Source: a virus
Taxonomy: Duplodnaviria > Heunggongvirae > Uroviricota > Caudoviricetes
IMG/VR virus record: IMGVR_UViG_3300021400_001778
Coordinates: 8,923 to 72,922 of that record
Length of the DNA: 64,000 bases
Strand: one strand, 5' to 3'
The notes beneath the pieces are model-generated. The model saw only the letters and a program-made list of their open reading frames with translations, had not been told where the DNA came from and ran no database searches. A program made the translations under genes and the position numbers. How positions within the stretch are numbered: the first letter of the stretch is position 1; the number at the start of each line of letters is the position of its first letter. Shown here piece by piece: positions 1,864-61,801 of this stretch.

Positions 1864-4800
1864 ATGATGACAAACTGGAAGGATGCGGAAGATGCTTACG
1901 CGGCGGCTATGAATTCTGCGGGTTCAGCAGAAAAAGAAAATCAATCGTTCCTTAACTCTATCGCGGGTAAACAGGCACAGTTTAAATCAGCGTTCGAATC
2001 ATTGTCGAATGATGTAATCAATAGTGACCTTGTTAAGTTCGGCGTTGATATGGGAACTATGATGGTTAAAGGACTTGACGGTGTTATTAATGCGACTGGT
2101 GGCGGATTAGGCACTGTTATTCTCGGCGGATTAGGTACAACTGCCATTAAGGGCGCGGGCGTATTTACAAAGAAATTTACAGAAGGACTCGGCAAAGAGA
2201 AGTTCGGCGAAGTAGTTGCGGAATATGGTAAGATTGGAACAGCAAAAATGATGGGAGAATCTTTGCTGTCCGCAACAAAAGGATTGGGAATGTTGCTACC
2301 CGCGATGGGAATAACAGCGGGTGTTGCAACTGCCGCGGCTGTCGCATTTAAATTATGGGACGATAATACTGAGCAATTAACAGAAGCGCAACAAAAATTA
2401 TCTAATAGTTTAACAAATAGTAATGCCGCAAGAAAGCAAGTTGAGGATATCACTTCTCAAATTGCAAAAAATCAAGAAGAAATTAAATCAATCGAGCAAG
2501 GCGGAGTTTCTTCTGTTGGCGAGGCTTCAAGAGTTGAGCAATTAAAAAATGAAAACGCACAACTTGGAACAAAGTTAACTTATCAAAAAACAATAGCAGA
2601 TGTTGAAGCTAAGAGTGCCGCTGAATCAGCAAGACGCGCAATTAGTATGGATAATGCATATATGCGCAATGGTGTTTCAACAAGTACGTTAACTGGTAAA
2701 ATTGGTCTCGCAATAAATACATTAGCAGGTCAAGGACATAGTAAAGGTATTTATATGTCCGAGGCGGAACACTTAGACCAAGTTACTGATAATTATATAA
2801 AAACTCAGGATGAACTCAATGCCGCTATGGAAAGCGGTAATCAAGAAACAGTTTCGAAGCTACAAGATGAATTAGTAGACTTAAATAAGGAATATTCTGA
2901 AGGATTAAGCCAACAATACGAATATCTTGACGCTTTTACGGATAAATCTACAGGTAAAGCATTATCTGGTTTCGAGAAGGAATATCAAAGTGCAAGAAAT
3001 CAGATAAATAAAATGCTTAGACCAACGATGGGTGATGACCAATTCCTCAATACTATCCTCGGTTATGGTGAATACGAGGGTGTCGCAGAAGAACTCACAA
3101 ATATGGCTTTAAATGGTGGGTTCAGCAAAGGGTGGGAAAACTCAACACAAAGTATTAGAGATTTTGTGAATGAAGTCAATGCCTCTGGAATGGATAACGC
3201 CGCTAATAAAATTAAGAATCTTTTCACTGGAATTGCAAACGGTTCAACAGATGGGTCTGTTGCTCTTGCGCTTGTGGAAGATAATTTTGAAAGCGTAACC
3301 GAAAGTATAAATGATTTTGAAAATAGATTTTCTAATACTGCGGCGGCGGCAAAAGGCGGATTTTCTTCAAAGGGATTGTCGTTTGGCGAAAAGGGTATTT
3401 TAGGTAGTAGGTATGATTCTGCTATTCAAACAACCGCGAACGGATTTAGATTGAATTATTCAGAATTTGCTAAAAATAGGGCAAGTTCAATTTCTCGTCA
3501 AAGAGCCGATAATCAAGCTGATATAAAACAACTTCAATCATACGGAGATAGTTTAGCGAAATCATATCAAAACATTCAAGATAAAATTGCAAAAGCAAAT
3601 TCGCGTGATGCAAGGCAAGGCGGTTTAGGTGCTGAAAGTATTAGTGAATTAAAATCACAAGCGGCGCAATATGCGCAAGCTATAAAAACCGTTCAAGCAA
3701 GTATAGGAAACTTAAACGATGCGCAGATAGAATTATCTGGTTTAGGTTCTAAATTAAATACATATCTTGATACAGCAAGCGGTGATTATGAATCAACTAA
3801 GAATCTCGATGCAGTTGCCGCATCGTTCGCAAACTTAAAAGAAGAAGTCGATAGAGGTTGGACGAGCGGCGCTCAGGCAAGAGCGTTTACGGACGCTTGG
3901 ACTTACGCGGATATGACAAAAGCAAGTAATCAAGAGATTGCGGATTCTTATGCCGAAGCAGAAGCTAACTACAAAAAGTTCTATGATGTAACACAAAACG
4001 AACGCAGCGGAAAATGGGAATCTGAAATAAATGGCACTAAAATTCTTTCTGAACTTAACAGCGCGGGAGAATCTTTAGGAAAAACTTTTGTTGGTGCTAA
4101 TAAAGATATTAAAATGTCCTCGGAAGATATTGCTAATGTTGCTAAAGTTTGGGGTGTATCAGAATCAATGGCATCTGAACTTGTCGGAGCATTAGATGGA
4201 TTCGAAGGGCATTCTGTAGAAATATCGAGAGTTGGCAAATCCTATGACCAATTAATGCAGTCTATCGGCGGTGCAGATGAAGCGTTACAGAAATATGGTG
4301 ACGGCATCGAAACCGTTGATAAAATATCTAAATCCACAGAAAGTCTGGCGAACCATCTTAATGATGTGCAAGAAGCCCGACATGCGGCATCTCAATCAGA
4401 TGATATTGATAGTTTCAACGCTTTAAACGCCGAACTTGCAAAAACCGCGAAACTCGCGGCACGAGTTGAAGAGCGCAATGGGTTTGAGAATAATCTTATG
4501 AACTTCAATGCTTCTGATTCTTCTTCAATGGATTTTAAGAATAGAATTGAATTACTTAAAGATGCGCAAGAAGCTGTTGAGGACTTAAATTATACTAAAA
4601 CCGTAGATAAATATGCCCCCGGAATGCTTGGCGTAGATGCTGTTAGCACGGCAGAAGGAGCTGTTGATAGCGCAAATCATGCTATCGCGCAATATATTTC
4701 AGAAAATGGATTAGCTTCAGACCTCGAAGGGTTAAGCCCAGACGCCACGCAAGAGGAAATAGCTGATTATATATCTGGTATGGAAATCAGCGACTTAGCA

Positions 4801-8109: not shown

Positions 8110-8934
8110 ATGACGGTGCAAGCTAAAGATTTTATGTTTAACGGTGTATTGTTATCAAGTTTAAATAATGATTATGAACTTGTTTCATTCGATACTTCAC
8201 CGTCAGACACAAGTGTGGGCTTTATGGATAATAAAGTCGAAATGAGCGATATAAATTATAATTCACCAGTCGTTCATTTTTATCATTCAACTGCAAAAGA
8301 TACGTTGCAATTCGATATTATGATATCGAAAAGGAATGGTAAATATTTAACACAATCAGAAATCCGCGAATTATCTGGTTGGTTAACAAGTCCTATCTCT
8401 CCTAAAGTTTTATCGTTTGTTAAATATAAAAGAGATGATGGGACGGCGGTTTATGAAGATTTAGAATATATAGGCGTGTTTAATAAAGCAGAATATTCTG
8501 AAATGGGACAAGTACAAAAAATGGGTGTAGGTTTTAGCTTCACGAATATATCTGCATTTGCTTTTACGAAAGAAAGTGAAGTGAATGTAAATAATACGTT
8601 GGAAGATAAAACTATTATTATATCAAGCGATGGAACTGCAACTGGATTACCAATATATCCCGTTATAGAGATAATGCCGACAGAAGATGGTACAGTTTTT
8701 ATTACGAATCTTTCTAATAAAAATGATACTGGTTTTGGAGTAAACGTCAAAAATGGGGAAAAAATAGTAATTAAAGATTTTAATGTATTTTCTGATGATG
8801 GCAGTTTATACAGCTTTGACAATTTAACAAGTTTAATGTTCCCATACTTAATTGACGGAGATAATGAAATTAAAATACAAGGCAGATGTACTTGTAAATT
8901 TATTTATAGATTTTTAGAAAATATAGGTGTTTAA
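8110..8934 (+). CDS. Distal tail protein (Dit)-like structural protein; the ATG at 8110 is preferred over the longer ORF starting at 8062
   Basis: Position immediately after the tape-measure gene; ggagg ribosome-binding site at 8095-8099 precedes the ATG at 8110. Confidence 0.45.
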   Translation: MTVQAKDFMFNGVLLSSLNNDYELVSFDTSPSDTSVGFMDNKVEMSDINYNSPVVHFYHSTAKDTLQFDIMISKRNGKYLTQSEIRELSGWLTSPISPKVLSFVKYKRDDGTAVYEDLEYIGVFNKAEYSEMGQVQKMGVGFSFTNISAFAFTKESEVNVNNTLEDKTIIISSDGTATGLPIYPVIEIMPTEDGTVFITNLSNKNDTGFGVNVKNGEKIVIKDFNVFSDDGSLYSFDNLTSLMFPYLIDGDNEIKIQGRCTCKFIYRFLENIGV

Positions 8935-38016: not shown

Positions 38017-39297
38017 TTATGCTGTTTGGATACTCGCGACTTTAGCCGTGAGAGGAAAACAACTTCTCCTTTCTATAAGATATCCATTAACATGTTCTAA
38101 TAATTTTAACTTCTTATAACTAATATTTCCTTTATTCACTTTATCTCCACTTAAATTTCTTATATCAAAATACCCAGTTTTTCTTCTTGCGAAGATAAAA
38201 TACTGTTTCCCTTGATACATTACTCTATCGTATAAATGAAACCCATGTATATCATAATCTGTCTGATTTCTTTTCTTTACGCCACCTTTGCAGATATTGA
38301 ATTTATGAATTTGGCGATTATGTCTTCTAACTTTCCTATAATAGTAAATACAATCATCGTCTTTTGCTAATGTATTTCCGCTAATACATCGCGCGTCTAT
38401 ATAATGTTCTTTCGGCAAACCATGAAGAATCCTACTGTTCTTTGTAATATATCCGAATGTCATAGATACATCTTTATATCTACTTTTTAATTCGTTGTAG
38501 AACGCCCATCGCATAATCCCCATAAACGTTGCGTCTCTAAAAGACATGCCACGTTTGATTGTATTAGGAAGTTTTACCGTCCCATTGTGATATCCTTTGT
38601 GGCAAGTTTCGCAAAGTGTAATTAAATTGTTTGGCGCATCACCACCCGTCTTTCTACTTTCGATATGATGAACATTTAAAATCTTATCTTTTGACTTACC
38701 TTTACAGCATTGGCAAGTGTGACCATCTCTGAACAATACATATTCACGCACGTTCCAAAATCCAAGCTGTTCACCCTCTTGATACATTTCGTTATGTATA
38801 TCAGGGTTTTTAATCTTCTGTATATCAAAAGACGCTGTTTCAACCACAATCTTTGATATAGGAAGAATATTATAAATCTTATCAACCACAGATAAATGCG
38901 TTTCAATTTTGTGTCTGATGCTTGGCGATAACCATTTCTCGCATCGCTTTCGGTTGTTGAAACGTGCTTTGCGATATCTTGTTTTGCGATTTCTTCGTTC
39001 TTTTCTTGCTCCGCGCCTTGTAGATAACTTCTCTACAATATCGTTTCGGAGTTCTACTTCCGATTCAAATAAAACTTGATTACTTGTAGTTGCTGATAAT
39101 CCTATAGTTTTACTTCCACTATCAACTCCAAGAGAGATATCTTGAATAACATTTCCAGTTTCGTATAATAATTGAATCGTGAACGGATTTTTATTAATTA
39201 CCTTTGCTTTATTGTCTCGCAAAAGTCTTCTTACTTTCCCAAAACGCTTCGTTGGCATTAAAGGTTTTCCGTCTCGATTTATCACATAAACAAACAT
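38017..39297 (-). CDS. iscB: IscB (OMEGA-system RNA-guided nuclease, IS200/IS605-associated ancestor of Cas9)
   Basis: N-terminal PLMP domain (INRDGKPLMPTKRFGKVRRLL), RuvC-I (ISLGVDSGSKTIG), Arg-rich bridge helix, HNH (CQCCKG...NVHHIESRKTGGDAPNNLITLCETCHKGYHN), RuvC-III (KEHYIDARC); 426 aa. Confidence 0.85.
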   Translation of the reverse strand: MFVYVINRDGKPLMPTKRFGKVRRLLRDNKAKVINKNPFTIQLLYETGNVIQDISLGVDSGSKTIGLSATTSNQVLFESEVELRNDIVEKLSTRRGARKERRNRKTRYRKARFNNRKRCEKWLSPSIRHKIETHLSVVDKIYNILPISKIVVETASFDIQKIKNPDIHNEMYQEGEQLGFWNVREYVLFRDGHTCQCCKGKSKDKILNVHHIESRKTGGDAPNNLITLCETCHKGYHNGTVKLPNTIKRGMSFRDATFMGIMRWAFYNELKSRYKDVSMTFGYITKNSRILHGLPKEHYIDARCISGNTLAKDDDCIYYYRKVRRHNRQIHKFNICKGGVKKRNQTDYDIHGFHLYDRVMYQGKQYFIFARRKTGYFDIRNLSGDKVNKGNISYKKLKLLEHVNGYLIERRSCFPLTAKVASIQTA

Positions 39298-39620
39298 AAT
39301 ACTCCTATGATATGTTTTGTTGTTGTAAACCAGTACATATCAACTGTAAGATAACCATCGTCAATGTTATGGAAAGGTTTACATATGCACAACACTGTTC
39401 CTACCCATTAGAACTGTTTAATCATGCGTCGTAGAGTTACAGACTTGGTTATACATCCGTAAGTACCTATACATTCTTTCCTAACGTAGTGTCCGAAACA
39501 CTTAGACTAATCAATAACGAACTTTCGCAAGTCCGTGACTTTAGTCATGGGTTATTGACGCTCTTTCCACTATTTCAAGAGCATCACTTAATATTGAATT
39601 TACCATAAATATGCCTCCTA
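39298..39620 (-). ncRNA. Candidate omega-RNA (HEARO-type) for IscB: ORF-free, higher-GC region immediately 5' of iscB
   Basis: About 320 nt with no ORF and many inverted repeats, in the position expected for an IscB omega-RNA; a promoter lies just upstream at 39627-39655. Confidence 0.5.
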
Positions 39621-52354: not shown

Positions 52355-52358
52355 TAAT

Positions 52359-52430
52359 TGTGAGTTCGGGACTCGAACCCGAAACCTACCGCTTATAAGG
52401 CGGGTGCGCTCACCAGTTGCGCTAACTCAC
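52359..52430 (-). tRNA. tRNA, anticodon read as UAU (Ile); possibly a different identity if the anticodon stem is mis-drawn
   Basis: Reverse complement GTGAGTTAGCGCAACTGGTGAGCGCACCCGCCTTATAAGCGGTAGGTTTCGGGTTCGAGTCCCGAACTCACA; 7-bp acceptor, TCGGG/CCCGA T-stem, GTTCGAG T-loop; anticodon loop CTTATAA. Confidence 0.45.
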
Positions 52431-52439
52431 ATTATTTAA

Positions 52440-52512
52440 CAGGGGTAGTTGGATTCGAACCAACGAAATGCAGCAGTCAAAGTGCTGTGCCTTACCTCTT
52501 GGCGATACCCCT
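52440..52512 (-). tRNA. tRNA-Gln (anticodon UUG)
   Basis: Reverse complement AGGGGTATCGCCAAGAGGTAAGGCACAGCACTTTGACTGCTGCATTTCGTTGGTTCGAATCCAACTACCCCTG closely resembles E. coli tRNA-Gln (3-bp D-stem; anticodon loop CTTTGAC). Confidence 0.7.
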
Positions 52513-52627
52513 ATTTTTATTATACTGTGCCTTTCGCAATAAAGGATTTCGCGACGCGTCACTACTTTCCACACTTCCGTAAAAGCTGTCTTTCACCGTC
52601 AATCCGCAAATTTCGGAGGGCATTTAT

Positions 52628-53446
52628 TTATTCTTCTACCAATTTAATAAATTTTGCTGTACCTCTATTTAAATCTTCGAGAGAATTAAATTTACTTACG
52701 CCACCCGTCGGTCGTACATCTCCATCATCATCTATAAGTTTACCATCGGAAATTTCATAAACCTTTCCAAGTGTGTATCCTTCGTACTCTTTTGTACAAA
52801 CAACTTTCATATTAAACTTTTTATTGTAAATTTCATCCTTTGATTCAGTGTATAAATCGAAGCAACTACAATCTACCCACCAGTAGTCGCTATTATTACC
52901 TTCTTTATGCACCTTCATTCGGAATTTAAGTTCTGGTGTCATTCTAATATTTATTTCTGAAACAACACCAATCCAACCTTTATTTGTCAAAGCGTAATGG
53001 TTCTTGTCATTACCTATAACTTTATCACCAACAGTAAATCCTAAAATAAGGCGACTGAAAGCGAGAATTGCACCAGTTTTAAAATCATACTTATCCTTCG
53101 GATTGCACTTTGCTGTACACTTTTCTTTGGTGTTTTTGTTAAGAGCGGTGACAACGCTCCCATTATTGTAAATCACAATAGATTCCTTAGATGGCAATTC
53201 TTTTTCAACCTTCTCTAAGCCGCGTTCATCCCAAATATACGGTGGGATATCAGATAATATATAATAAATCATACCATCTTTATTTGATGATACTGATTCA
53301 ATAGTATGTTCTTCGCCAATATACTCATTCATTCCCTCTTCACCAACCGACCAATTACCAGTGTAATTTTCGATTTTTGAGCCATCCATGATTCTTACTT
53401 TATCGCCAACTTTGAACTTACCAGTAATTTTTTCTTCTTTCATTTC
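52628..53446 (-). CDS. Hypothetical protein (start taken at MKEEKITGKF; the longer ORF would overlap a tRNA-like gene)
   Basis: ORF lying between tRNA genes. Confidence 0.4.
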   Translation of the reverse strand, partial: EMKEEKITGKFKVGDKVRIMDGSKIENYTGNWSVGEEGMNEYIGEEHTIESVSSNKDGMIYYILSDIPPYIWDERGLEKVEKELPSKESIVIYNNGSVVTALNKNTKEKCTAKCNPKDKYDFKTGAILAFSRLILGFTVGDKVIGNDKNHYALTNKGWIGVVSEINIRMTPELKFRMKVHKEGNNSDYWWVDCSCFDLYTESKDEIYNKKFNMKVVCTKEYEGYTLGKVYEISDGKLIDDDGDVRPTGGVSKFNSLEDLNRGTAKFIKLVEE

Positions 53447-53474
53447 AAAAACCCTTTCTTTTTTATTTTTAATA

Positions 53475-53543
53475 TTGGAGTGGCGGGATTCGAACCCGCA
53501 CTCCGTTGTACAAACGTACTCTTCCACTAAGCTACACTCCGAA
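53475..53543 (-). tRNA. tRNA-like gene of atypical length (~68 nt) with canonical D- and T-arms and a C1:A72 mismatch; anticodon uncertain (GUA, Tyr-like, if a 3-bp anticodon stem is assumed)
   Basis: Reverse complement CGGAGTGTAGCTTAGTGGAAGAGTACGTTTGTACAACGGAGTGCGGGTTCGAATCCCGCCACTCCAA; T-arm GCGGG-TTCGAAT-CCCGC. Confidence 0.35.
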
Positions 53544-53544
53544 C

Positions 53545-54230
53545 TGGCGACCCCTTGTACTTCGGTGGTACTTTAATGCTCATTAACACACCAGTTTTAT
53601 GTACGTTCGATTTGGTTACGGCTACTCTCGACAAAGTAACTATTGCGCACTGGTCACTTCCGTACAAAATACACTTACAAGCTACCGAAAGCCCGCCCCT
53701 TTGCCTTTACTCTTATTACGCTACGTGAGGGTTTTAAGTGCCACTTGTCGCCAAGCACAACCTGTCGTTTTACGCGCATATGCGGTATATTTCACTTGTA
53801 AGATGGCAGAAAAGAGATATTTATCAGCTAATATCACTTTATACGCTACCTATTTTCTCCTTATAACCACCCCCAACACACCATTCGCTGATAAATACGT
53901 GATTATAAGGTAAAAAATTCTTACGCATCTGCCTATTGTTCTGATAAGGATTTGCACCTTACATGCAAGAGTTTTTAAACCACGCGTGCTAACTATTGTA
54001 TGCATCCAATCCCTTGCACAGCACGCTTTACGTCTACCTATTCCGCCACAGAACATGTTATTTTGTCTCCACAAAGGTTACAAACCTAAGAATCGAAATC
54101 ACGCTTTCGCTTCTCATTTTGAACGGGTTCGCGCGACCCGCCCGCGCCGATTTTAAGTTATATTATATCGGGAACTTAGGCAGTCTAAAGGAAACTTACC
54201 ATCCCTCTGCTGTTTGAGTATACAGCATAA
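53545..54230 (-). ncRNA. About 690-nt ORF-free, GC-enriched region flanked by tRNAs and downstream of a strong promoter: candidate large structured ncRNA (ROOL/GOLLD-like); strand assumed from co-orientation with the tRNAs
   Basis: No ORF of 60 aa or more apart from two short overlapping ones on both strands; GC-rich helices such as cgggttcgcgcgacccgcccgcgccg; ROOL and GOLLD RNAs are typically found next to tRNAs in phages. Confidence 0.45.
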
Positions 54231-54314
54231 TGCGGATAATGGGATTCGAACCCACATGGTTAAATAACCGAGGGATTTTAAGTCCCTTGCGTCTGCCAAT
54301 TTCGCCATATCCGC
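54231..54314 (-). tRNA. tRNA-Leu (anticodon UAA), long variable arm
   Basis: Reverse complement GCGGATATGGCGAAATTGGCAGACGCAAGGGACTTAAAATCCCTCGGTTATTTAACCATGTGGGTTCGAATCCCATTATCCGCA resembles bacterial tRNA-Leu(UAA). Confidence 0.7.
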
Positions 54315-55064: not shown

Positions 55065-55877
55065 TTAATCTGTTTGTATTTTCATAACCAATTCTCTGTT
55101 AAACCACGGCATCATATCTTCTAATTGGCTCTGTATTTCTTCTACGCATTCTTTAAGTTCTGGATGTGCCGTTCCGTTCATATTTCGCTCTCTATAAACG
55201 TGTGCCCATTCTGTAAGGTTGATTTTAAAAATAAACGCACTCGGTATGCTTTCCATATACAATCCGCGCTTTACATCGCGCTTGTCTTTTAAATCTTCTC
55301 TGATGTAGCCATTAACCGCTTTGAGAAATGTTTCGCTATCAACTGTAATCATTTCTGGAAGTTCTATGTTAAGTTGTTCACATGCAACATCTGTCGGAAT
55401 AATTTTATCTTTGTAATAATCTGACATTTCGCCAGACGAAAAATCTCCTAATCTTGTACTCGCGCGAATGATTCTGTTATCCATTCTTTTTGCATGACTG
55501 TCTAAGTCATCCTGACCGCCGCGATGTAACCCATCAACTGTAACAGATAAATCAATAAAGCGTAGCATTGTTGCATGTCTTGTGCCCCACTTGCATAACT
55601 TATTCATATAGTCTACGAATTTATCATTATTATTACCGTACATATCATAACTACCATCTAAATGTGTAGAATCAAAAACGACATTTCTTATCGTCTCTTC
55701 CTTTTCTCTTGTCCATGAACGCTTGGAAAAATACATCGTGGTTATAGCATCGTCAATACCTGTAATTTTATTTAAATATACCTTCACTCTTTCAACCCAC
55801 TTTCTATAATATTTATCTGACAATTTCTCATTGTTGTAATCGCCGCATCGTGATTCTCTTTGGTAGTACCCGCGCAT
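55065..55877 (-). CDS. thyX: Flavin-dependent thymidylate synthase (ThyX)-like
   Basis: C-terminal EWAHVYRERNMNGTAHPELKECVEEIQ resembles the ThyX signature W.HF..LR...HAQ.EIR; 270 aa. Confidence 0.5.
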   Translation of the reverse strand: MRGYYQRESRCGDYNNEKLSDKYYRKWVERVKVYLNKITGIDDAITTMYFSKRSWTREKEETIRNVVFDSTHLDGSYDMYGNNNDKFVDYMNKLCKWGTRHATMLRFIDLSVTVDGLHRGGQDDLDSHAKRMDNRIIRASTRLGDFSSGEMSDYYKDKIIPTDVACEQLNIELPEMITVDSETFLKAVNGYIREDLKDKRDVKRGLYMESIPSAFIFKINLTEWAHVYRERNMNGTAHPELKECVEEIQSQLEDMMPWFNRELVMKIQTD

Positions 55878-56314
55878 AAATCTTCTACTACGTAAATCTC
55901 ATTTTCTGGATAATGTGCTTTGAGTAGTAACGCATTTGAAACAACACAAATATCCGTACATACTCCGCAAAAATACACATCATTTTTCTCGTATCTAAGA
56001 TATGAAATCAGCGACAGACAAGCAAACTGATTCTTTAAGAATCGAATACCTTTTGATTCTAATATACCTTTCACTTCTCCCGTTAATTCGCTACCTACTG
56101 TGCCAACAATACAATGCTTGACTGGTAGTTTACGCCCTTCCTGCGTATTTAAATATTCATTGTCTAAATGGATATCGCATGTATAGAATATATCGCCGTT
56201 AAAATTTTTAATATATTCCGCAACCTTCGGCGCGATTCTTTTTGCTTCTGGTGTACCCAAAACGCCGCCAACAAAATCATTTTGCATATCAACAACAACT
56301 AATACTTTTTTCAT
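55784..56314 (-). CDS. Isochorismatase-family cysteine hydrolase (nicotinamidase/PncA-like); start taken at MKKVLVVVDMQNDF
   Basis: VLVVVDMQNDF; Cys in CGVCTDICV; ctcct ribosome-binding site upstream of 56314. Confidence 0.55.
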   Translation of the reverse strand: MKKVLVVVDMQNDFVGGVLGTPEAKRIAPKVAEYIKNFNGDIFYTCDIHLDNEYLNTQEGRKLPVKHCIVGTVGSELTGEVKGILESKGIRFLKNQFACLSLISYLRYEKNDVYFCGVCTDICVVSNALLLKAHYPENEIYVVEDLCAGTTKENHDAAITTMRNCQINIIESGLKE

Positions 56315-56894
56315 AGAACTCCTTATTAATACTCTCGATATTTTTATGTGGCAAACTTGCCATTTCTTCAACAATTCTATCTATTTCGTAATCGTGCATA
56401 AAGAATCTATACGTTATATCTGCCAAAAATAACTTTGTGTTATTATCATCGTATATAACTTCATACATTCTTTGATTTGTATTACGACTATTAAGCCCGC
56501 CGCAAGATTCTATATAATTCCCAATCTTAATATAGTCGAGGCAAGCCGTGTCGTAAAATACACTAAACACTTTTGTGCTTCTACTACCGCTATATATACA
56601 AACTTTGTAGCCGCGCTTCTTAACTCTTTTGCATAAATCATATAATTCGTTTAAATTTTGGTCGCCACCCATAAAACATACACAAGTTATGAGCGAATTA
56701 TATTTATCTATAAGTTTGTCTAAGTCGTCGGAAATATAATTACCAGTGTACTCCCAAAGATATTGGGAGTGGCAACCCTTACATCTGTAAGGGCAACCAC
56801 TAATATTAATAGCAAGCGATATCTCGTCAGGGACTTCTTCGCAAACTACAGCATAACTAACATATTTAAGTTTCTGTCGTTTCTGCATCACCAC
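56289..56894 (-). CDS. nrdG: Anaerobic ribonucleotide reductase activating protein (radical SAM)
   Basis: CPYRCKGC (Cx3Cx2C) near the N-terminus; adjacent to nrdD. Confidence 0.7.
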   Translation of the reverse strand: MVMQKRQKLKYVSYAVVCEEVPDEISLAINISGCPYRCKGCHSQYLWEYTGNYISDDLDKLIDKYNSLITCVCFMGGDQNLNELYDLCKRVKKRGYKVCIYSGSRSTKVFSVFYDTACLDYIKIGNYIESCGGLNSRNTNQRMYEVIYDDNNTKLFLADITYRFFMHDYEIDRIVEEMASLPHKNIESINKEFYEKSISCC

Positions 56895-57342
56895 TCCAAT
56901 AATAACGCTTATGTTCTTCTTCCTGTCTCTTTTCGGAGAACTTCGATACGCGCTTTAAATAACCGATAACTCTTGTTGCATAATCAATATTCTCAGAGCC
57001 GCAAACAGGACACTCAGAGTATCTATGCTTGCTAATATTACCGCAATCATTACAGATTGTATTCGGTACATTAAACGTAAAATATGAACAGCCAGTCTTA
57101 ATAGCTACGTTCATTAAATGACGATACTGCTCTTTGCTCAAGTGTTCTTGCAGATTCGCATGAAGCGCAGAACCGCCATCAAGCCACTTAGTTGTCTTAT
57201 CGCCATGAAGAATAAACTTATCCAATAGTGAACAGGTTTCATCTTCTGGTTTATAAAAATACGAATTATAGCAATCGCGAGGTGAGAAGTATCCGTCTTC
57301 CTTGTCCCACTTTGCATTTTTTACGCCGAGATTTTCAGCCAA
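56866..57342 (-). CDS. nrdD: Anaerobic ribonucleoside-triphosphate reductase NrdD, C-terminal exon (Zn ribbon plus glycyl-radical motif)
   Basis: CNDCG...CPVCGS...ATRVIGYL (RVxGY glycyl radical site); separated from the N-terminal ORF by a 218-nt ORF-free gap. Confidence 0.65.
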   Translation of the reverse strand: MAENLGVKNAKWDKEDGYFSPRDCYNSYFYKPEDETCSLLDKFILHGDKTTKWLDGGSALHANLQEHLSKEQYRHLMNVAIKTGCSYFTFNVPNTICNDCGNISKHRYSECPVCGSENIDYATRVIGYLKRVSKFSEKRQEEEHKRYYWSGDAETTET

Positions 57343-57560
57343 TCTGTTACTTTTATGACCAGTTATAACTGGCGGTCAAGGTTCTTCGACCTCAACTCAT
57401 GCATTTTATTTAAGGTTATCGTGCATGTTCAGACTATCACATCCCCATCATAAATGGAGTCCTCTTATTTAGTCGTTCACGGTGTATTTAAACTTCCGCC
57501 CTGTTGTCCACCTCTGGATTTCCAAGTCAATTAAAGAGGATTGCTATAGCGGATTATGTA
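57343..57560 (-). mobile_element. ORF-less group I intron splitting nrdD (exact boundaries uncertain)
   Basis: On the minus strand an R-like gtgaacgactaaa (reverse complement of ~57470-57482) and an S-like gatagtctgaac (reverse complement of 57427-57438) give P7 gacta/tagtc; nrdD introns are known in T4-like and Bacillus phages. Confidence 0.55.
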
Positions 57561-59738
57561 TTATGCCGCTAAATGCCCACGTAGTTTAGGCACGTACTCA
57601 GTATTAAACATATAATGCTCAGTTTTTGCCGCTTTATTCTCTTCGTAAATTGGTTTTAAGCAACGTGTACAGTATTCGAAATACTCTTCGTTTGGCGAGA
57701 TATCAATACCTAAGAATTCCGCGCCCTCGACAAGTCCGTTAATACCAACTGTCAAGAATTGCTTATCCATATTGATGAATCCCGCGTCATAAATCGGAAG
57801 CATCTTTGCTTTCAAGAAATCACGCAGATTATCATCATAAGCGATTTGATACTTGTGTACTAATCTCACCTGTTCTCTGATTTTGCTGTCTAAATAGTTA
57901 TAAAACTCTTCTTTATCTCTCCACTCCTTATACTTATATGCGTCTTGCACAAGTCGATTGAAGTTAATTGTGATAACACTCTTGCTACCTGTTGATACGC
58001 CGCCCGCTCCGAGAGTATACGAGAATGTATTGTCTTGTAGTTCGTTGCGCAAACGACAGTTGTAATTATGGATACCATTCGCGAGAGTAAACATATCATC
58101 AGTCTTATCATCCATTTCAAAACAGTACACTTCATCATCGTAATCATATTTTTCTATGGATTTGATTCTGAAATAATATTTACCATTATCACAGATATTA
58201 TCTTCTGATTCTTCTAATTCGTTCGAGTTATATCTACTCAAGCAGTAGAATTTTAAACCATCTTTTTCAAAAGTATATCTGCGCGTTATACACCCATCAA
58301 TAGTACATATAGCATCTAAACTATCCGTAAATCTTTCGCATAAGCTACTATACACATTCGTATCTGAGAATACACCGTCTAATAATCCTCGTCTGAATTC
58401 GTTATCTATAAACGCCCACCTTAAATTAACTTCTAATAAACGATGATTCCGTATTAACGCTCCGTAATTATGACCCATTCTGTATAAATCCAAATCATTA
58501 TCATCGAGGAATGTGTCATAAGGTGTCGAATTAACCATTAAATAATCATTGGTTGTAAGGTCTTTTGTTAATTTCATACCACCGAAAACATTATTTCTAT
58601 GGTTGTCGGTTGCTATCATCTCCTTGTTATTTGTTAAAGTAACCTTATACATCTGTCTATTCGGTAATTTAACAAGTTTACCTTTACACCAACGTCCATT
58701 ATTGAATATCTCGTATCCATTATCATCAAATTTCATTGACTCAATATCTTCAAATTTTACTCTATAAACACTTTTTGAGTCTTTAATTAAAACATAGGTA
58801 TCTTTTGAGTAACAACATGAAGCTAACGAATCAACTGAATTACTGCGGTACATAAAGAACGAATGTCCTTTAGCCCACATTTCAGCAACAAAATCGGCAA
58901 ATTCTTTATCTACATAATCAACTCCATCATCTAAAAGATTTACTGTTTCAACAGGGAAAGTGAGAATTGTTCTCAGACGTTCTCTATTGAACCAATTCAT
59001 AAACTTTTTCTGTAACCACAGCACTGATTCATACTGTGGTTCTGTGCCATCGGGGAATACAAAATCCTCGAAGATACTTTCAAAGTACGGTCTGTCAAAA
59101 TAAGCGATATTCCAAAATACGCTCTGGTAGTTTCTCGCCGCCGCAGGTTGATTTAAACTGTAAACAACTTCTTGAAAGCACTGACTAATTACACTGTCAA
59201 TATCTCTGCGTCTTTTTGACAAATCAACAACTTCATTGCTTCTTAAATAATAGTCATCTCCGTATTCTTTGCGGATAAAGTAATCCATATAAGTTAAAAA
59301 CTCAGGTGTACTTACCGCGCCCGCAAACTGCGATGCAACAGCAAAAACAAGATTCACAAATGACCCGCAAAATGACTGTAAATTCTTCGGCGGTTCTGAA
59401 ATACCGCCAATATTTTTCATCCCTTTAAATAAATACGGATACATTGTAATGCTAACGCAGTACGGATAAATACTTGTTTCATCATGTTTATAGATTTGAT
59501 GTTTATCTAACTGCTCAATGTATTTTTCTGCTACTGCTTCGCCAAATAATTCTTTCTGTTTGTCGTACATCATTGTACGGTTAATTCCAATCATTAATTT
59601 TTTTGGAATCTCACCAGTTAAGGTTGTAATATTTTTGTTTTCTACATTAGCGTTCGAATCTACCGCACTACCAGTTGCGGCGTTCGATGCTCTCGTATAC
59701 TTCTTAATGAATTTTATTTCGCTATCATATCTCTTCAA
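57561..59738 (-). CDS. nrdD: NrdD N-terminal exon (725-aa ORF) containing an approximately 250-aa intein
   Basis: ...RLRNELQDNTFSYTLGAGGVSTGSKSVITINFNRL... is typical of class III RNR; the segment between SLASC and CRLRNEL is an insertion. Confidence 0.7.
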   Translation of the reverse strand: MKRYDSEIKFIKKYTRASNAATGSAVDSNANVENKNITTLTGEIPKKLMIGINRTMMYDKQKELFGEAVAEKYIEQLDKHQIYKHDETSIYPYCVSITMYPYLFKGMKNIGGISEPPKNLQSFCGSFVNLVFAVASQFAGAVSTPEFLTYMDYFIRKEYGDDYYLRSNEVVDLSKRRRDIDSVISQCFQEVVYSLNQPAAARNYQSVFWNIAYFDRPYFESIFEDFVFPDGTEPQYESVLWLQKKFMNWFNRERLRTILTFPVETVNLLDDGVDYVDKEFADFVAEMWAKGHSFFMYRSNSVDSLASCCYSKDTYVLIKDSKSVYRVKFEDIESMKFDDNGYEIFNNGRWCKGKLVKLPNRQMYKVTLTNNKEMIATDNHRNNVFGGMKLTKDLTTNDYLMVNSTPYDTFLDDNDLDLYRMGHNYGALIRNHRLLEVNLRWAFIDNEFRRGLLDGVFSDTNVYSSLCERFTDSLDAICTIDGCITRRYTFEKDGLKFYCLSRYNSNELEESEDNICDNGKYYFRIKSIEKYDYDDEVYCFEMDDKTDDMFTLANGIHNYNCRLRNELQDNTFSYTLGAGGVSTGSKSVITINFNRLVQDAYKYKEWRDKEEFYNYLDSKIREQVRLVHKYQIAYDDNLRDFLKAKMLPIYDAGFINMDKQFLTVGINGLVEGAEFLGIDISPNEEYFEYCTRCLKPIYEENKAAKTEHYMFNTEYVPKLRGHLAA
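58059..58814 (-). mobile_element. Intein in NrdD (about residues 309-560), with a degenerate LAGLIDADG-like region
   Basis: Begins CYSKDTYVLIKD (block A-like), has TDNH (block B-like TxxH), ends ...VYCFEMDDKTDDMFTLANGIHNYN followed by Cys; RRGLLDGVFSD is LAGLIDADG-like. Confidence 0.5.
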
Positions 59739-59739
59739 A

Positions 59740-59952
59740 TCAATTTTTTACCCCCACATTATTCAGCCATTTAACCGCTTCGGGAAATGTCATTACTTTG
59801 TCGTCTACTTCTAACAACGGTACTGTTTGGAATCCAAGTTTCCGCGCTTCTTCAACATCAATAGTTGACTCGTAATCAAGTCCGAGACTATCCATTTTAC
59901 TTTTTAAAAACTCACATTTGGGACAGCCAACATTAGAATAAAGTTTAATCAA
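59740..59952 (-). CDS. nrdH: Glutaredoxin-like protein (NrdH-like)
   Basis: CPKC redox motif near the N-terminus; 70 aa; adjacent to nrdD. Confidence 0.55.
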   Translation of the reverse strand: MIKLYSNVGCPKCEFLKSKMDSLGLDYESTIDVEEARKLGFQTVPLLEVDDKVMTFPEAVKWLNNVGVKN

Positions 59953-60028
59953 TCAATTCACATCCTCTCCTTAAATTTTATTAAACAACTATTTGAAATT
60001 CGGCAATTAATATAACTGCCGAAAATCG

Positions 60029-60424
60029 TCAAAACTCAACTGTGTACTGCGCTAATCCGTACTTTTCAGCGTTTTCAATCATATTCTTAGTGCCGCGAGA
60101 CTTACCATCCCAAAATGCTACAAGAATACCCTCGTCATCTTCATCTTCATATTCTGCGGCGTATTTAGCCATCTCTTCATTTCTGATAACACCCGCCGCC
60201 TTGCCATACTTATCCCAATCTGCGGGAAAATACTTTATCGCATAATTATTTTCCTTTGCGAAACGTTCGCCAAGCATATCAGCACCACGGCACATTCCGC
60301 ATATAATTTCAATTTGCTCCTTCTCTTTATCAATCCCGAACAAATTAAATAATACATCCATGTTTGACTTCAAAAAATCATAATTGTCAAATTCTCTACT
60401 GCCCGCGATAATAATTTTTACCAT
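60029..60424 (-). CDS. SLOG-superfamily (YspA/DprA-LOG-like) protein
   Basis: KIIIAGSREF...ICGMCRGADMLGERFA pattern. Confidence 0.45.
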   Translation of the reverse strand: MVKIIIAGSREFDNYDFLKSNMDVLFNLFGIDKEKEQIEIICGMCRGADMLGERFAKENNYAIKYFPADWDKYGKAAGVIRNEEMAKYAAEYEDEDDEGILVAFWDGKSRGTKNMIENAEKYGLAQYTVEF

Positions 60425-60433
60425 AAATCACCT

Positions 60434-61192
60434 TTACACTATTCTTACTATTTTTTCATATAAAATATTAAATTTGCCAAATATTTGTTTCTCGCAATGA
60501 TAATGACCGCAATACCATTTGTTAAATTTTAAACCGTTGATTAGTAGTAAATCATTGAAATATTGTGTTAAGTAATCTCCGTCCATACATCCTATGCAAA
60601 CAGAAACGTCTTGTGGAAGACAATGTGTTATAACATAATCCACTTCGTAATTAACGTCTTCAAGCGATTGTATACCGCGCTTCATTTCTTCCTCTGATGG
60701 AAGTTCTTCTTCCCACCACGAAACGCCTTTAACACGGAACATTTTATTATGTTTTCGCCACGAATTATAAACTCTTTTAAATTCTTCTTTGGTTTCAAAT
60801 TCATTTGGGTCTAAAATTCCATCTTGAATATCATGCGAACTTGCGCCACCGAACGCGAAAAACTTTTTACCGACAAGATTGAAAACATATCCGCGCATCA
60901 GGTGATAAATATTATCAGCTATCTTGTGCGCTTTCCCGCCGCAAAAATCTACAACAGGGAATGTATATAACATGTTGAAACATTCGTGATTACCATCGAC
61001 AAATAATGTCGTAAACGGCTTATCATTTAGCCAATCAAGCCAGTATTTTTCTTCTTTTGAGTTAGACCAAATTCCACTAAAATCGCCTAATATAATAACA
61101 AAATCATTTCTTGTCATTTCTTTTTGCTCTGGAAATTTTGAAGTAGAAAATCTCCTAAAATCCCCGTGGCAATCTCCTGTAATGTATACCAT
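60434..61192 (-). CDS. Calcineurin-like metallophosphoesterase
   Basis: YITGDCHGDF, VIILGDFSG and VDGNHE motifs. Confidence 0.65.
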   Translation of the reverse strand: MVYITGDCHGDFRRFSTSKFPEQKEMTRNDFVIILGDFSGIWSNSKEEKYWLDWLNDKPFTTLFVDGNHECFNMLYTFPVVDFCGGKAHKIADNIYHLMRGYVFNLVGKKFFAFGGASSHDIQDGILDPNEFETKEEFKRVYNSWRKHNKMFRVKGVSWWEEELPSEEEMKRGIQSLEDVNYEVDYVITHCLPQDVSVCIGCMDGDYLTQYFNDLLLINGLKFNKWYCGHYHCEKQIFGKFNILYEKIVRIV

Positions 61193-61204: not shown

Positions 61205-61801
61205 CTATATATATCGAAACCTATATCCGCCATGAGATTTCTTTTTCCCATTCAAAACAGCCCATATATTTTTGTAATTCAATGACATTTTTCTTGCACA
61301 TTCATGTATATTATTCCAAATCACTTCAGTTTCTACACAAATAAACTCTTTATTTCTTGTCGTGTTGAGCATCTGTTCTGCTATAGAAACAAACCTACAA
61401 TTTGATGGTTCATAATTCCCATTAACATCTATCCTGTCTAATGTACATTCTCCGTATTTTGCGCCATCGTCATATCCGTTTTTGTAAGCCCAATTTCTAA
61501 AAGACTCATAACTATTTTTCCAATCATCACAGACTTTAATGTTGCGTTCACCGTAATTTTTATATTTATTATTGTTTTTGTTATAACACCTTTCTTTCAT
61601 GCCTGCCCAAACAGAATATAGCCTTTCACCATAATGCCCATGATAGCTATAAACATCCCGATGACCCAAACATCCACAACTCTTTTTATGTCCACTTAAT
61701 AATGCCGATGTCGATACATCGCACTCGTTTCCGCATTCGCAAATACAATGCCACTGTACTGCTCCCCAACTATTTCTTCCGTTTTCATATAATACTTTCA
61801 A
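61205..61801 (-). CDS. Free-standing HNH homing endonuclease (HNH_3 type)
   Basis: ...LDRIDVNGNYEPSNCRFVSIAEQ... plus a Cys-rich N-terminal region. Confidence 0.6.
   Translation of the reverse strand: MKVLYENGRNSWGAVQWHCICECGNECDVSTSALLSGHKKSCGCLGHRDVYSYHGHYGERLYSVWAGMKERCYNKNNNKYKNYGERNIKVCDDWKNSYESFRNWAYKNGYDDGAKYGECTLDRIDVNGNYEPSNCRFVSIAEQMLNTTRNKEFICVETEVIWNNIHECARKMSLNYKNIWAVLNGKKKSHGGYRFRYI

Follow-up and report, generated by a model that had tools for sequence, protein, structure and literature searches.

A group I intron together with an intein in the anaerobic ribonucleotide reductase gene nrdD of a tailed phage

In a 64,000-nucleotide (nt) stretch of a Caudoviricetes genome (IMG/VR record IMGVR_UViG_3300021400_001778, positions 8,923 to 72,922; hereafter the window), the gene nrdD for the class III, anaerobic ribonucleotide reductase (RNR) appears on the minus strand as two open reading frames (ORFs) separated by 218 nt, the first of which carries an additional segment beside its conserved cysteines. 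Is this one gene interrupted by an intron and by an intein, as the initial annotation had proposed from the letters alone, or has it been split, or does it encode an enzyme with an unusual domain? We established the identity and the boundaries of both insertions, the families to which they belong, and an insertion polymorphism at the intein site. The nrdD gene very probably holds two independent selfish insertions, one a group I intron and the other an intein, both of which must be removed to obtain the active enzyme. From the sequence, we infer that its RNA and its protein are actually spliced.

In-silico removal of the two elements resulted in a 622-amino-acid (aa) NrdD, of which residues 8 to 611 align with NrdD from Thermotoga maritima (4COI/4U3E) with an E-value of 1e-78. 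This end-to-end alignment bears out the double interruption and defines the extein junctions, for which the initial annotation had suggested E. coli or T4 NrdD; it is gapless at ...SVDSLASCCRL... and at ...FNTEYVPAENLGV... (VPAE). The uninterrupted relative L003 (MT835470.1) reads SLSSCCRLRNE and FNTEFVPAENLGVK across the two sites. The Pfam NRDD profile matches ORF 1 with its positions 13-264, resumes past the insertion, and matches ORF 2 with positions 415-561; the Pfam Intein_splicing match inside ORF 1 falls into the gap between the NRDD segments. Unspliced exon 1 scored 606 bits against NCBIfam TIGR02827 (anaerobic RNR of the Bdellovibrio/Thermotoga type, cutoff 568). We found all features of a class III NrdD, namely the SCCR motif, the glycyl-radical motif RxxGY (RVIGYL in exon 2), the C-terminal Zn ribbon (CNDC...CPVC, also in exon 2), and an adjacent nrdG. 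The N-terminal ATP-cone present in L003 is missing from the window NrdD, for which we assumed a TTG start codon. With nrdG intact and the exteins conserved, we argue that nrdD is in use.

The intron and its family

Exon 1 ends with ...GAG TAC GTG CCT at position 57588 and exon 2 starts with GCT GAA AAT at 57339, which puts the intron after the codon of Pro465 and before that of Ala466 (numbered on the mature protein; ...EYVP/AENLG..., where the slash marks the junction here and below). The initial annotation correctly saw an ORF-less group I intron, but the 218 nt it gave are the gap between the ORFs, and the intron itself comprises 248 nt. The gap is shorter because the frame of exon 1 reads nine codons into the intron (KLRGHLAA and a stop) and because the apparent TTG start of ORF 2 sits in the last bases of the intron. 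The 5' splice site follows the U of GUGCCU, the last six bases of exon 1 (57588-57593), which pair with the internal guide sequence GGGCAU to form P1 with a splice-site U•G. The 3' end reads ...GUAACAGAUUG (...CAGAUUG/GCUGAA) and closes with a terminal G (omega-G).

The R-like and S-like motifs reported initially on the minus strand are indeed present (GUGAACGACUAAAU at ~57479-57466 and GAUAGUCU at ~57438-57431), and their GACUA and UAGUC stretches pair as P7. The helices of the core and the peripheral 3' helices are given in Table 1. A single nucleotide separates P3' from P8, so the window intron lacks P7.1/P7.2. Its P5 consists of a simple hairpin.

Homologous intron cores were found by BLASTN in two other phage records, MW202674.1 (L001) and MT835539.1 (L002). 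In a scan of IMG/VR, the exact R...S core (CGTGAACGACTAA-N15-45-GATAGTCT) appeared on at least 120 contigs (L004-L123), some of which (L016, L029, L037, L051, and L062) carry two to five copies of the intron. RNAalifold applied to 104 distinct cores recovered P3, P4, P5, P6, and P8, with compensatory changes in 17 of 23 nested pairs. A family covariance model derived from these cores detected 135 copies on the fetched loci and a single copy in the 64-kb window, which scored 115.6 bits (E 1.5e-26) and is thereby near the top of a family with a maximum of ~120 bits. In the alignment of the 135 sequences, to which we added P7 as a pseudoknot, 97.2% of the cells are paired, compared with 35-50% after sliding the partners by 1-3 columns. 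Both sides change in 26 of the 28 core pairs (13-20 in the slid controls), covariation scores 0.526 where the slid controls do not exceed 0.115, and none of 500 shuffles reached any observed value. On the grounds of this covariation among related sequences, the element in the window is confirmed as a group I intron.

The same codon boundary of nrdD is occupied by introns of this family in L096 (IMG/VR UViG_3300001487_000009, colinear with the window; NrdD 98.9% identical), L105 (63% aa identity), L014 (50%), and L068 and L093 (28%). The copy in L014 holds an HNH ORF. Across five nrdD lineages, L068, L093, and L105 among them, the guide tracks the exon (GUGCCU with GGGCAU or GGGCAC, AUCCCU with GGGGAU, and GUCCCU with GGGGAC), and the 3' tail GUAACAGRNUG is kept in L096, L105, L001, and L014. 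We also considered a long-range CCGCC/GGCGG pairing within the intron and discarded it as unsupported, its partner being changed in L001 and L105. Identity with the insertion site of the T4 nrdD intron was likewise rejected; that intron lies at ~aa 180, and T4 reads STPAENL unbroken at the site used in the window. An RNA of the RAGATH-18 type matches L105 at 268-340, upstream of nrdD (75.9 bits).

Several observations weigh against the intron. The Rfam 15 group I model RF00028 (Intron_gpI), run with Infernal as the initial annotation had advised, found no match at its gathering score in the whole window and none at E<=10 between 57100 and 57800, and the Rfam scan of the region gave a chance snoRNA match only. 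In the 135-sequence count, the nested helices were scored on an alignment that had itself been fitted to the covariance model; P7 is outside this model but varies in few sequences (CG>GC, UA>CG, AU>GC/UA). The compensatory differences in P9-P9.2 were identified by eye in a single comparison with the L105 intron, and we could not draw a convincing P10 pairing in the intron. As for the first of these points, RF00028 detects three group I introns on L029 that are unrelated to the family, but no family member across 18 other loci. A model that is blind to this family and yet finds other group I introns indicates a gap in sensitivity, and we judge the result for the window to be a false negative.

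The Rfam result would suit a gene that is truly split or pseudogenised, in which the 248-nt element is a dead intron relic or a spacer and the two parts are made separately or not at all. Some RNR genes are indeed split and function as separate chains, such as nrdA of Aeh1 (PMC3653736). However, the core of the window intron is intact and scores close to the best members of a covarying family, the U•G at the splice site and the omega-G are preserved, and the arrangement is kept in five other loci at 28-99% NrdD identity. The "start" of exon 2 is a TTG inside the intron; promoter-like or terminator-like signals in or near the intron do not exceed chance, and nothing thus points to separate expression of exon 2. 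With nrdG and the glutaredoxin gene intact as well, we consider a split or decayed nrdD extremely unlikely, and the element is best read as an intron that presumably still splices.

Outside nrdD, L001 carries a family intron of ~217 nt between the two coding-sequence (CDS) halves of a P22-like coat gene (2191-3706), for which the annotation of MW202674.1 gives two CDS and, spuriously, a "hypothetical protein" (2513-2632). In the unannotated L002, a tRNA-like gene appears to be split in its anticodon loop by the family intron (~1500-2640), which contains an ORF for a 272-aa HNH endonuclease (1611-2429). The family is abundant in phages and probably under-annotated, since RF00028 misses the members tested, and an abundant phage group I clade invisible to this model is mildly new. 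This has practical consequences. Gene callers will report nrdD of the window as fragments of 725 and 158 aa, and pipelines that rely on Rfam will overlook the intron. On many viral contigs, capsid and tRNA genes are interrupted by the same family, and GenBank already holds mis-annotations resulting from it, e.g., in MW202674.1.

The intein and its endonuclease remnant

In ORF 1, the insertion divides the essential SCCR motif between its two cysteines. The intein of ~250 aa initially placed between SLASC and CRLRNEL proved to comprise 252 residues. On its own, it matches Pfam PF14890 (Intein_splicing) with 39.5 bits, above the cutoff of 35.8. Furthermore, L096, despite sharing the same 248-nt intron, lacks exactly the 756 bp of the intein, and its junction AKGHSFFMYRSNSVDSLASCCRLRNELQDN (also read as SLASCCRLRNEL) is identical to the exteins of the window. 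An intein-less allele at such high NrdD identity implies that the insertion is not a domain of NrdD; T. maritima, L003, and L014 also read SCCRL unbroken. The motifs of an intein can be located as Cys1, T69-D-N-H72 in block B, VYCFEM in block F, and the C-terminal N252 followed by the +1 Cys.

A word-indexed protein search with five homologues had made the intein look rare, an idea we rejected when HMMER, run exhaustively over 1.84 billion representatives, returned 160 relatives. Both boundaries are readable in 78 of these, and all 78 are inserted between [S/A]C and CR in NrdD. An alignment of 25 family members shows no variation at C1, H72 (block B), C231 (block F), N252, or C+1. The intein sequence found no match among the PDB sequences with phmmer; the family profile matches the solved inteins gp41-1, TFIIB, DnaB, and RadA. 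We modeled the intein with AlphaFold2 using the 25-sequence family alignment, which gave a predicted local distance difference test (pLDDT) score of 94.9 and a predicted template modeling (pTM) score of 0.91. A Foldseek search of the PDB with this model returned inteins as all of the top 50 matches, the best being endonuclease-associated VMA inteins and PI-SceI with template modeling (TM) scores of 0.63-0.71, led by the TliVMA intein (TMq 0.71, E 8e-8). According to the model, the window intein is predicted to have the Hedgehog/intein (HINT) fold.

The initial annotation described the C-terminus HNYN as non-canonical, which it is, but not by way of two residues added to HN. In the family alignment, ANGIHNYN lies residue for residue with PNGIITHN, placing Tyr251 in the position of the penultimate His and a His two positions earlier; the HN within HNYN is hence not a displaced terminus. 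Among the 78 representatives, the C-terminus is HN in 67, YN in nine, FN in one, and SN in one. In the YN/FN inteins, which measure 145 to 358 aa and share only 40-66% identity with that of the window, the stretch GIHN[YF]N is strictly kept, which argues for a working terminus and for selection on the splicing ends. The penultimate His is not universal among active inteins, as the highly active Npu/Ssp DnaE inteins do without it. We regard the sub-clade with a penultimate Tyr, together with the invariant block-F Cys, as mildly new for the NrdD intein family. This Cys also raised the possibility of a class 3 intein. Class 3 inteins are defined by the WCT triplet, comprising Trp (B:12), Cys (F:4), and Thr (G:5). 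We rejected this assignment, as Cys1 is present and the Trp and Thr are absent.

Four points speak against a functional intein. The penultimate His of block G is replaced by Tyr251, and position 4 of block F (aa 231, window ~58122-58124), where many inteins have the usual Asp, is Cys in the window intein as it is throughout the NrdD family. TIGR01445 scored 22.9, narrowly under its cutoff of 24.5, and a first AlphaFold2 run with a five-sequence alignment was unusable with a pLDDT of 43. The Tyr, the TIGR01445 score, and the degenerate endonuclease described below would suit a non-splicing relic that has lost its penultimate His and left NrdD non-functional, or else a lineage-specific NrdD domain. 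Against both stand the nucleophiles C1, N252, and C+1 and the block B His, all invariant, the predicted HINT fold, the strict conservation of GIHN[YF]N in distant relatives, and the intein-less allele, and inteins active without the penultimate His speak against a relic in particular. We hold either alternative to be very unlikely, and the insertion is most plausibly an intein that still splices.

In size, the family ranges from mini-inteins of ~142-170 aa through intermediate forms of 205-290 aa, to which the window intein belongs, to full-length inteins of ~340-358 aa with Pfam LAGLIDADG_3. The insert of the window intein aligns with both LAGLIDADG motifs of the full-length P0007, P0011, and P0016, in which Pfam LAGLIDADG_3 is found, and lacks the acidic GDGS and TDG segments as well as ~100 aa between the motifs. 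It has no match of its own in Pfam or PHROG, including LAGLIDADG. Because the acidic segments and the region between the motifs are deleted, the homing endonuclease of the window intein is most likely dead. The window intron carries no ORF. A free-standing I-HmuI/NUMOD-like homing-endonuclease ORF (61205-61801, minus strand) is located ~1.5 kb upstream of nrdD.

The comparison of the two alleles also touches on homing. Between L096 (13897-14016) and the window (57999-58874), DNA identity is 82-86% in the 50 nt flanking the junction and 96-100% beyond. All differences flanking the junction are synonymous and clustered within ~25 nt on each side; the intein-less L096 and L003 share TGTTGCAGACTT at the insertion site, where the window has TGT/TGTCGTTTG. 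Such a synonymous cluster would fit either co-conversion in the course of homing or selection acting on the target of the endonuclease, and both gain and loss of the intein are possible.

The two elements suggest the following order of events. The intron RNA would fold as a compact P1-P9.2 ribozyme, in which an exogenous G would attack at the U•G of P1 (GUGCCU/GGGCAU). The freed 3'-OH of exon 1 would then attack after the terminal G and join ...GUGCCU to GCUGAA..., giving the ligated junction ...GAGTACGTGCCT/GCTGAAAATCTC (57588/57339). The precursor protein translated from it would contain the 252-aa intein, of the class 1 type, between the SCCR cysteines. Cys1 would perform the N-S acyl shift, the +1 Cys would take over the N-extein, and Asn252 would cyclise, releasing the intein and restoring SCCR. 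With the endonuclease remnant presumably dead and no endonuclease gene in the intron, both elements may now be passengers that persist by splicing.

Residues 328-SCCR-331 of T. maritima NrdD align with 288-MGCR-291 of T4, so that the +1 Cys of the intein corresponds to the radical Cys290 of T4 and to C330 of T. maritima. In T. maritima NrdD, the C329A and C330A replacements each abolish activity (PMC4493059). Because the intein splits these two essential cysteines, the unspliced precursor would, by analogy, be inactive. The Cys(-1)-Cys1 and Asn-Cys(+1) pairs at the junctions, the invariant Cys at F:4, and the exchange of Tyr for His led us to consider whether the intein acts as a redox (oxygen) gate, in which a disulfide blocks splicing under oxidising conditions and NrdD matures only anaerobically. 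We think this unlikely; if true, it would be a case of conditional protein splicing as proposed for other Cys-rich inteins.

Features and neighbouring genes

Table 1. Features of the nrdD locus in window positions; a slash marks a junction or separates the two strands of a helix
Feature	Position	Strand	Description	Basis
nrdD ORF 1	57561..59738	-	725 aa	ORF list
nrdD ORF 2	56866..57342	-	158 aa	ORF list
nrdD exon 1, N-extein part	58815..59738	-	aa 1-308, ends ...SNSVDSLASC	ORF list; Pfam NRDD 13-264/562; alignment to 4COI
nrdD exon 1, C-extein part	57588..58058	-	CRLRNEL ... FNTEYVP	alignment to 4COI
nrdD exon 2	56866..57339	-	AENLGVK..., stop codon included	Pfam NRDD 415-561/562; alignment to 4COI
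Group I intron, ORF-less	57587..57340	-	248 nt	in-frame VP/AE restored; intron-less relative L003; same-site introns in L096, L105, L014, L068, L093
Internal guide sequence	57573..57578	-	GGGCAU	read directly from sequence
Catalytic core	57427..57540	-	P3-P4-P5-P6-P7-P3'-P8-P7'	RNAalifold on 104 cores; covariance model; pair counts on 135 sequences
P3	57534-40/57460-66	-	UCCUCUU/AAGAGGA	
P4, P5, P6	within core 57427..57540	-	P4 CUUG/CAGG; P5 UCCA/UGGA; P6 GCGG/CCGU	
P7	57470-74/57432-36	-	GACUA/UAGUC	
P8	within core 57427..57540	-	CUCCAU/AUGGGG	
P9, P9.1, P9.2 (peripheral 3' helices)	57357..57427	-	P9 CAUGCA/UGCAUG; P9.1 UUGAGGU/ACCUUGA; P9.2 CCAGUU/AACUGG	minimum-free-energy fold
Intein	58814..58059	-	252 aa; CYSKDT...ANGIHNYN	between SLASC and CRLRNEL; +1 = Cys of CRLRNEL
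Degenerate LAGLIDADG remnant	58179..58529	-	intein aa ~96-212	alignment with P0007/P0011/P0016
nrdG activase	56289..56894	-	radical SAM, CPYRCKGC; overlaps nrdD end	Pfam Fer4_12 / Radical_SAM
Glutaredoxin/NrdH-like gene	59740..59952	-	directly upstream of nrdD	Pfam Glutaredoxin

The nrdD gene is part of a nucleotide-metabolism block on the minus strand (55065-61192) with genes for ThyX-like, isochorismatase-like, NrdG, NrdD, glutaredoxin, YspA/SLOG, and metallophosphatase proteins. Four tRNA genes are clustered at 52358-54314 (minus strand), and the colinear region of L096 has a similar four-tRNA cluster. Farther away, a HEARO/omega RNA (Rfam RF02033, 131.7 bits; 39346-39559, minus strand) lies directly upstream of a 426-aa ORF with RRXRR and HNH domains (IscB-like, 38017-39297); together (38017-39559, minus strand) they look like an IscB-type RNA-guided nuclease element in a phage genome. 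When 24 kb of the window were compared with the GenBank phages by megablast, no match was returned, indicating that the phage itself is absent from that collection.

Comparison with known systems

Both elements belong to widespread known families, and their pairing has already been described in phage reductase genes; the finding in nrdD leaves existing knowledge of either element class unchanged. As for the intron, one close known system is the group IA2 intron of T4 nrdD (sunY) with I-TevII, a group I intron that likewise interrupts nrdD of a phage and whose core matches our family model weakly (16.3 bits). It differs in its position at ~aa 180 (AFQAYE/VNTL), its length of 1033 nt, and its GIY-YIG ORF, whereas the window intron sits at VPAE and has no room for P7.1/P7.2. 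In its features, the window intron also resembles the compact ORF-less group I introns that crAss-like and Jug phages of the gut carry (~206 nt on average), which are similar in size and phage context, interrupt nrdD and structural genes, and frequently co-occur with HNH endonucleases (PMC12880540).

The nearest counterpart of the intein is that in NrdD of the Clostridium botulinum phage c-st / D-1873, an insertion already noted as a putative intein (PMC3653736). The two share the insertion point between ASC and CR, a splicing domain with 31-32% identity, Cys1, the terminal Asn, and the +1 Cys, the c-st protein reading ALASC/CFDG...ITHN/CRLT. In contrast to the 252-aa window intein, from which the endonuclease is deleted and which ends in YN, the c-st intein is ~345 aa long, keeps full LAGLIDADG motifs, and has the canonical end THN, and c-st nrdD has no intron at VPAE.

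The initial annotation regarded the presence of both selfish types in one gene as notable. It is less so, because the pairing is documented in RNR genes and recurs in at least ten other NrdD clusters: 10 of the 78 intein-bearing NrdD representatives end just after VP with read-through peptides resembling KLRGHLAA, implying that these clusters carry the same intron. Among sequenced phages, nrdD is the RNR gene most often split (PMC3653736). As summarised in PMC3653736, nrdE of the B. subtilis phage SPbeta combines an intron with an intein and underlies the "Lightning strikes twice" commentary (Lazarevic 1998; Derbyshire & Belfort 1998). The same source lists a non-coding intron plus an intein in nrdD of Lactococcus phage 949 and three introns and an intein in nrdE of Brochothrix phage A9. 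Among 104 genomes of the Jug jumbo phages of the gut, 95 have an nrdD that is broken up by group I introns, genes for endonucleases, and Intein_splicing proteins; splicing of the nrdD introns is backed by metatranscriptome reads (PMC12880540).

In all four systems, as in the window, the insertions lie within highly conserved catalytic regions. SPbeta and A9 concern another RNR class, and nrdD of 949 and Jug is comparable to that of the window in the pairing of intron and intein, not in insertion site or element lineage. Unlike these four, both the intron and the intein of the window appear to be devoid of a working endonuclease. Together with a sister allele that has the intron without the intein and with endonuclease-bearing relatives of the elements, the intein with its decayed endonuclease and the ORF-less intron make this nrdD locus a clean natural example of the life cycle of homing elements.

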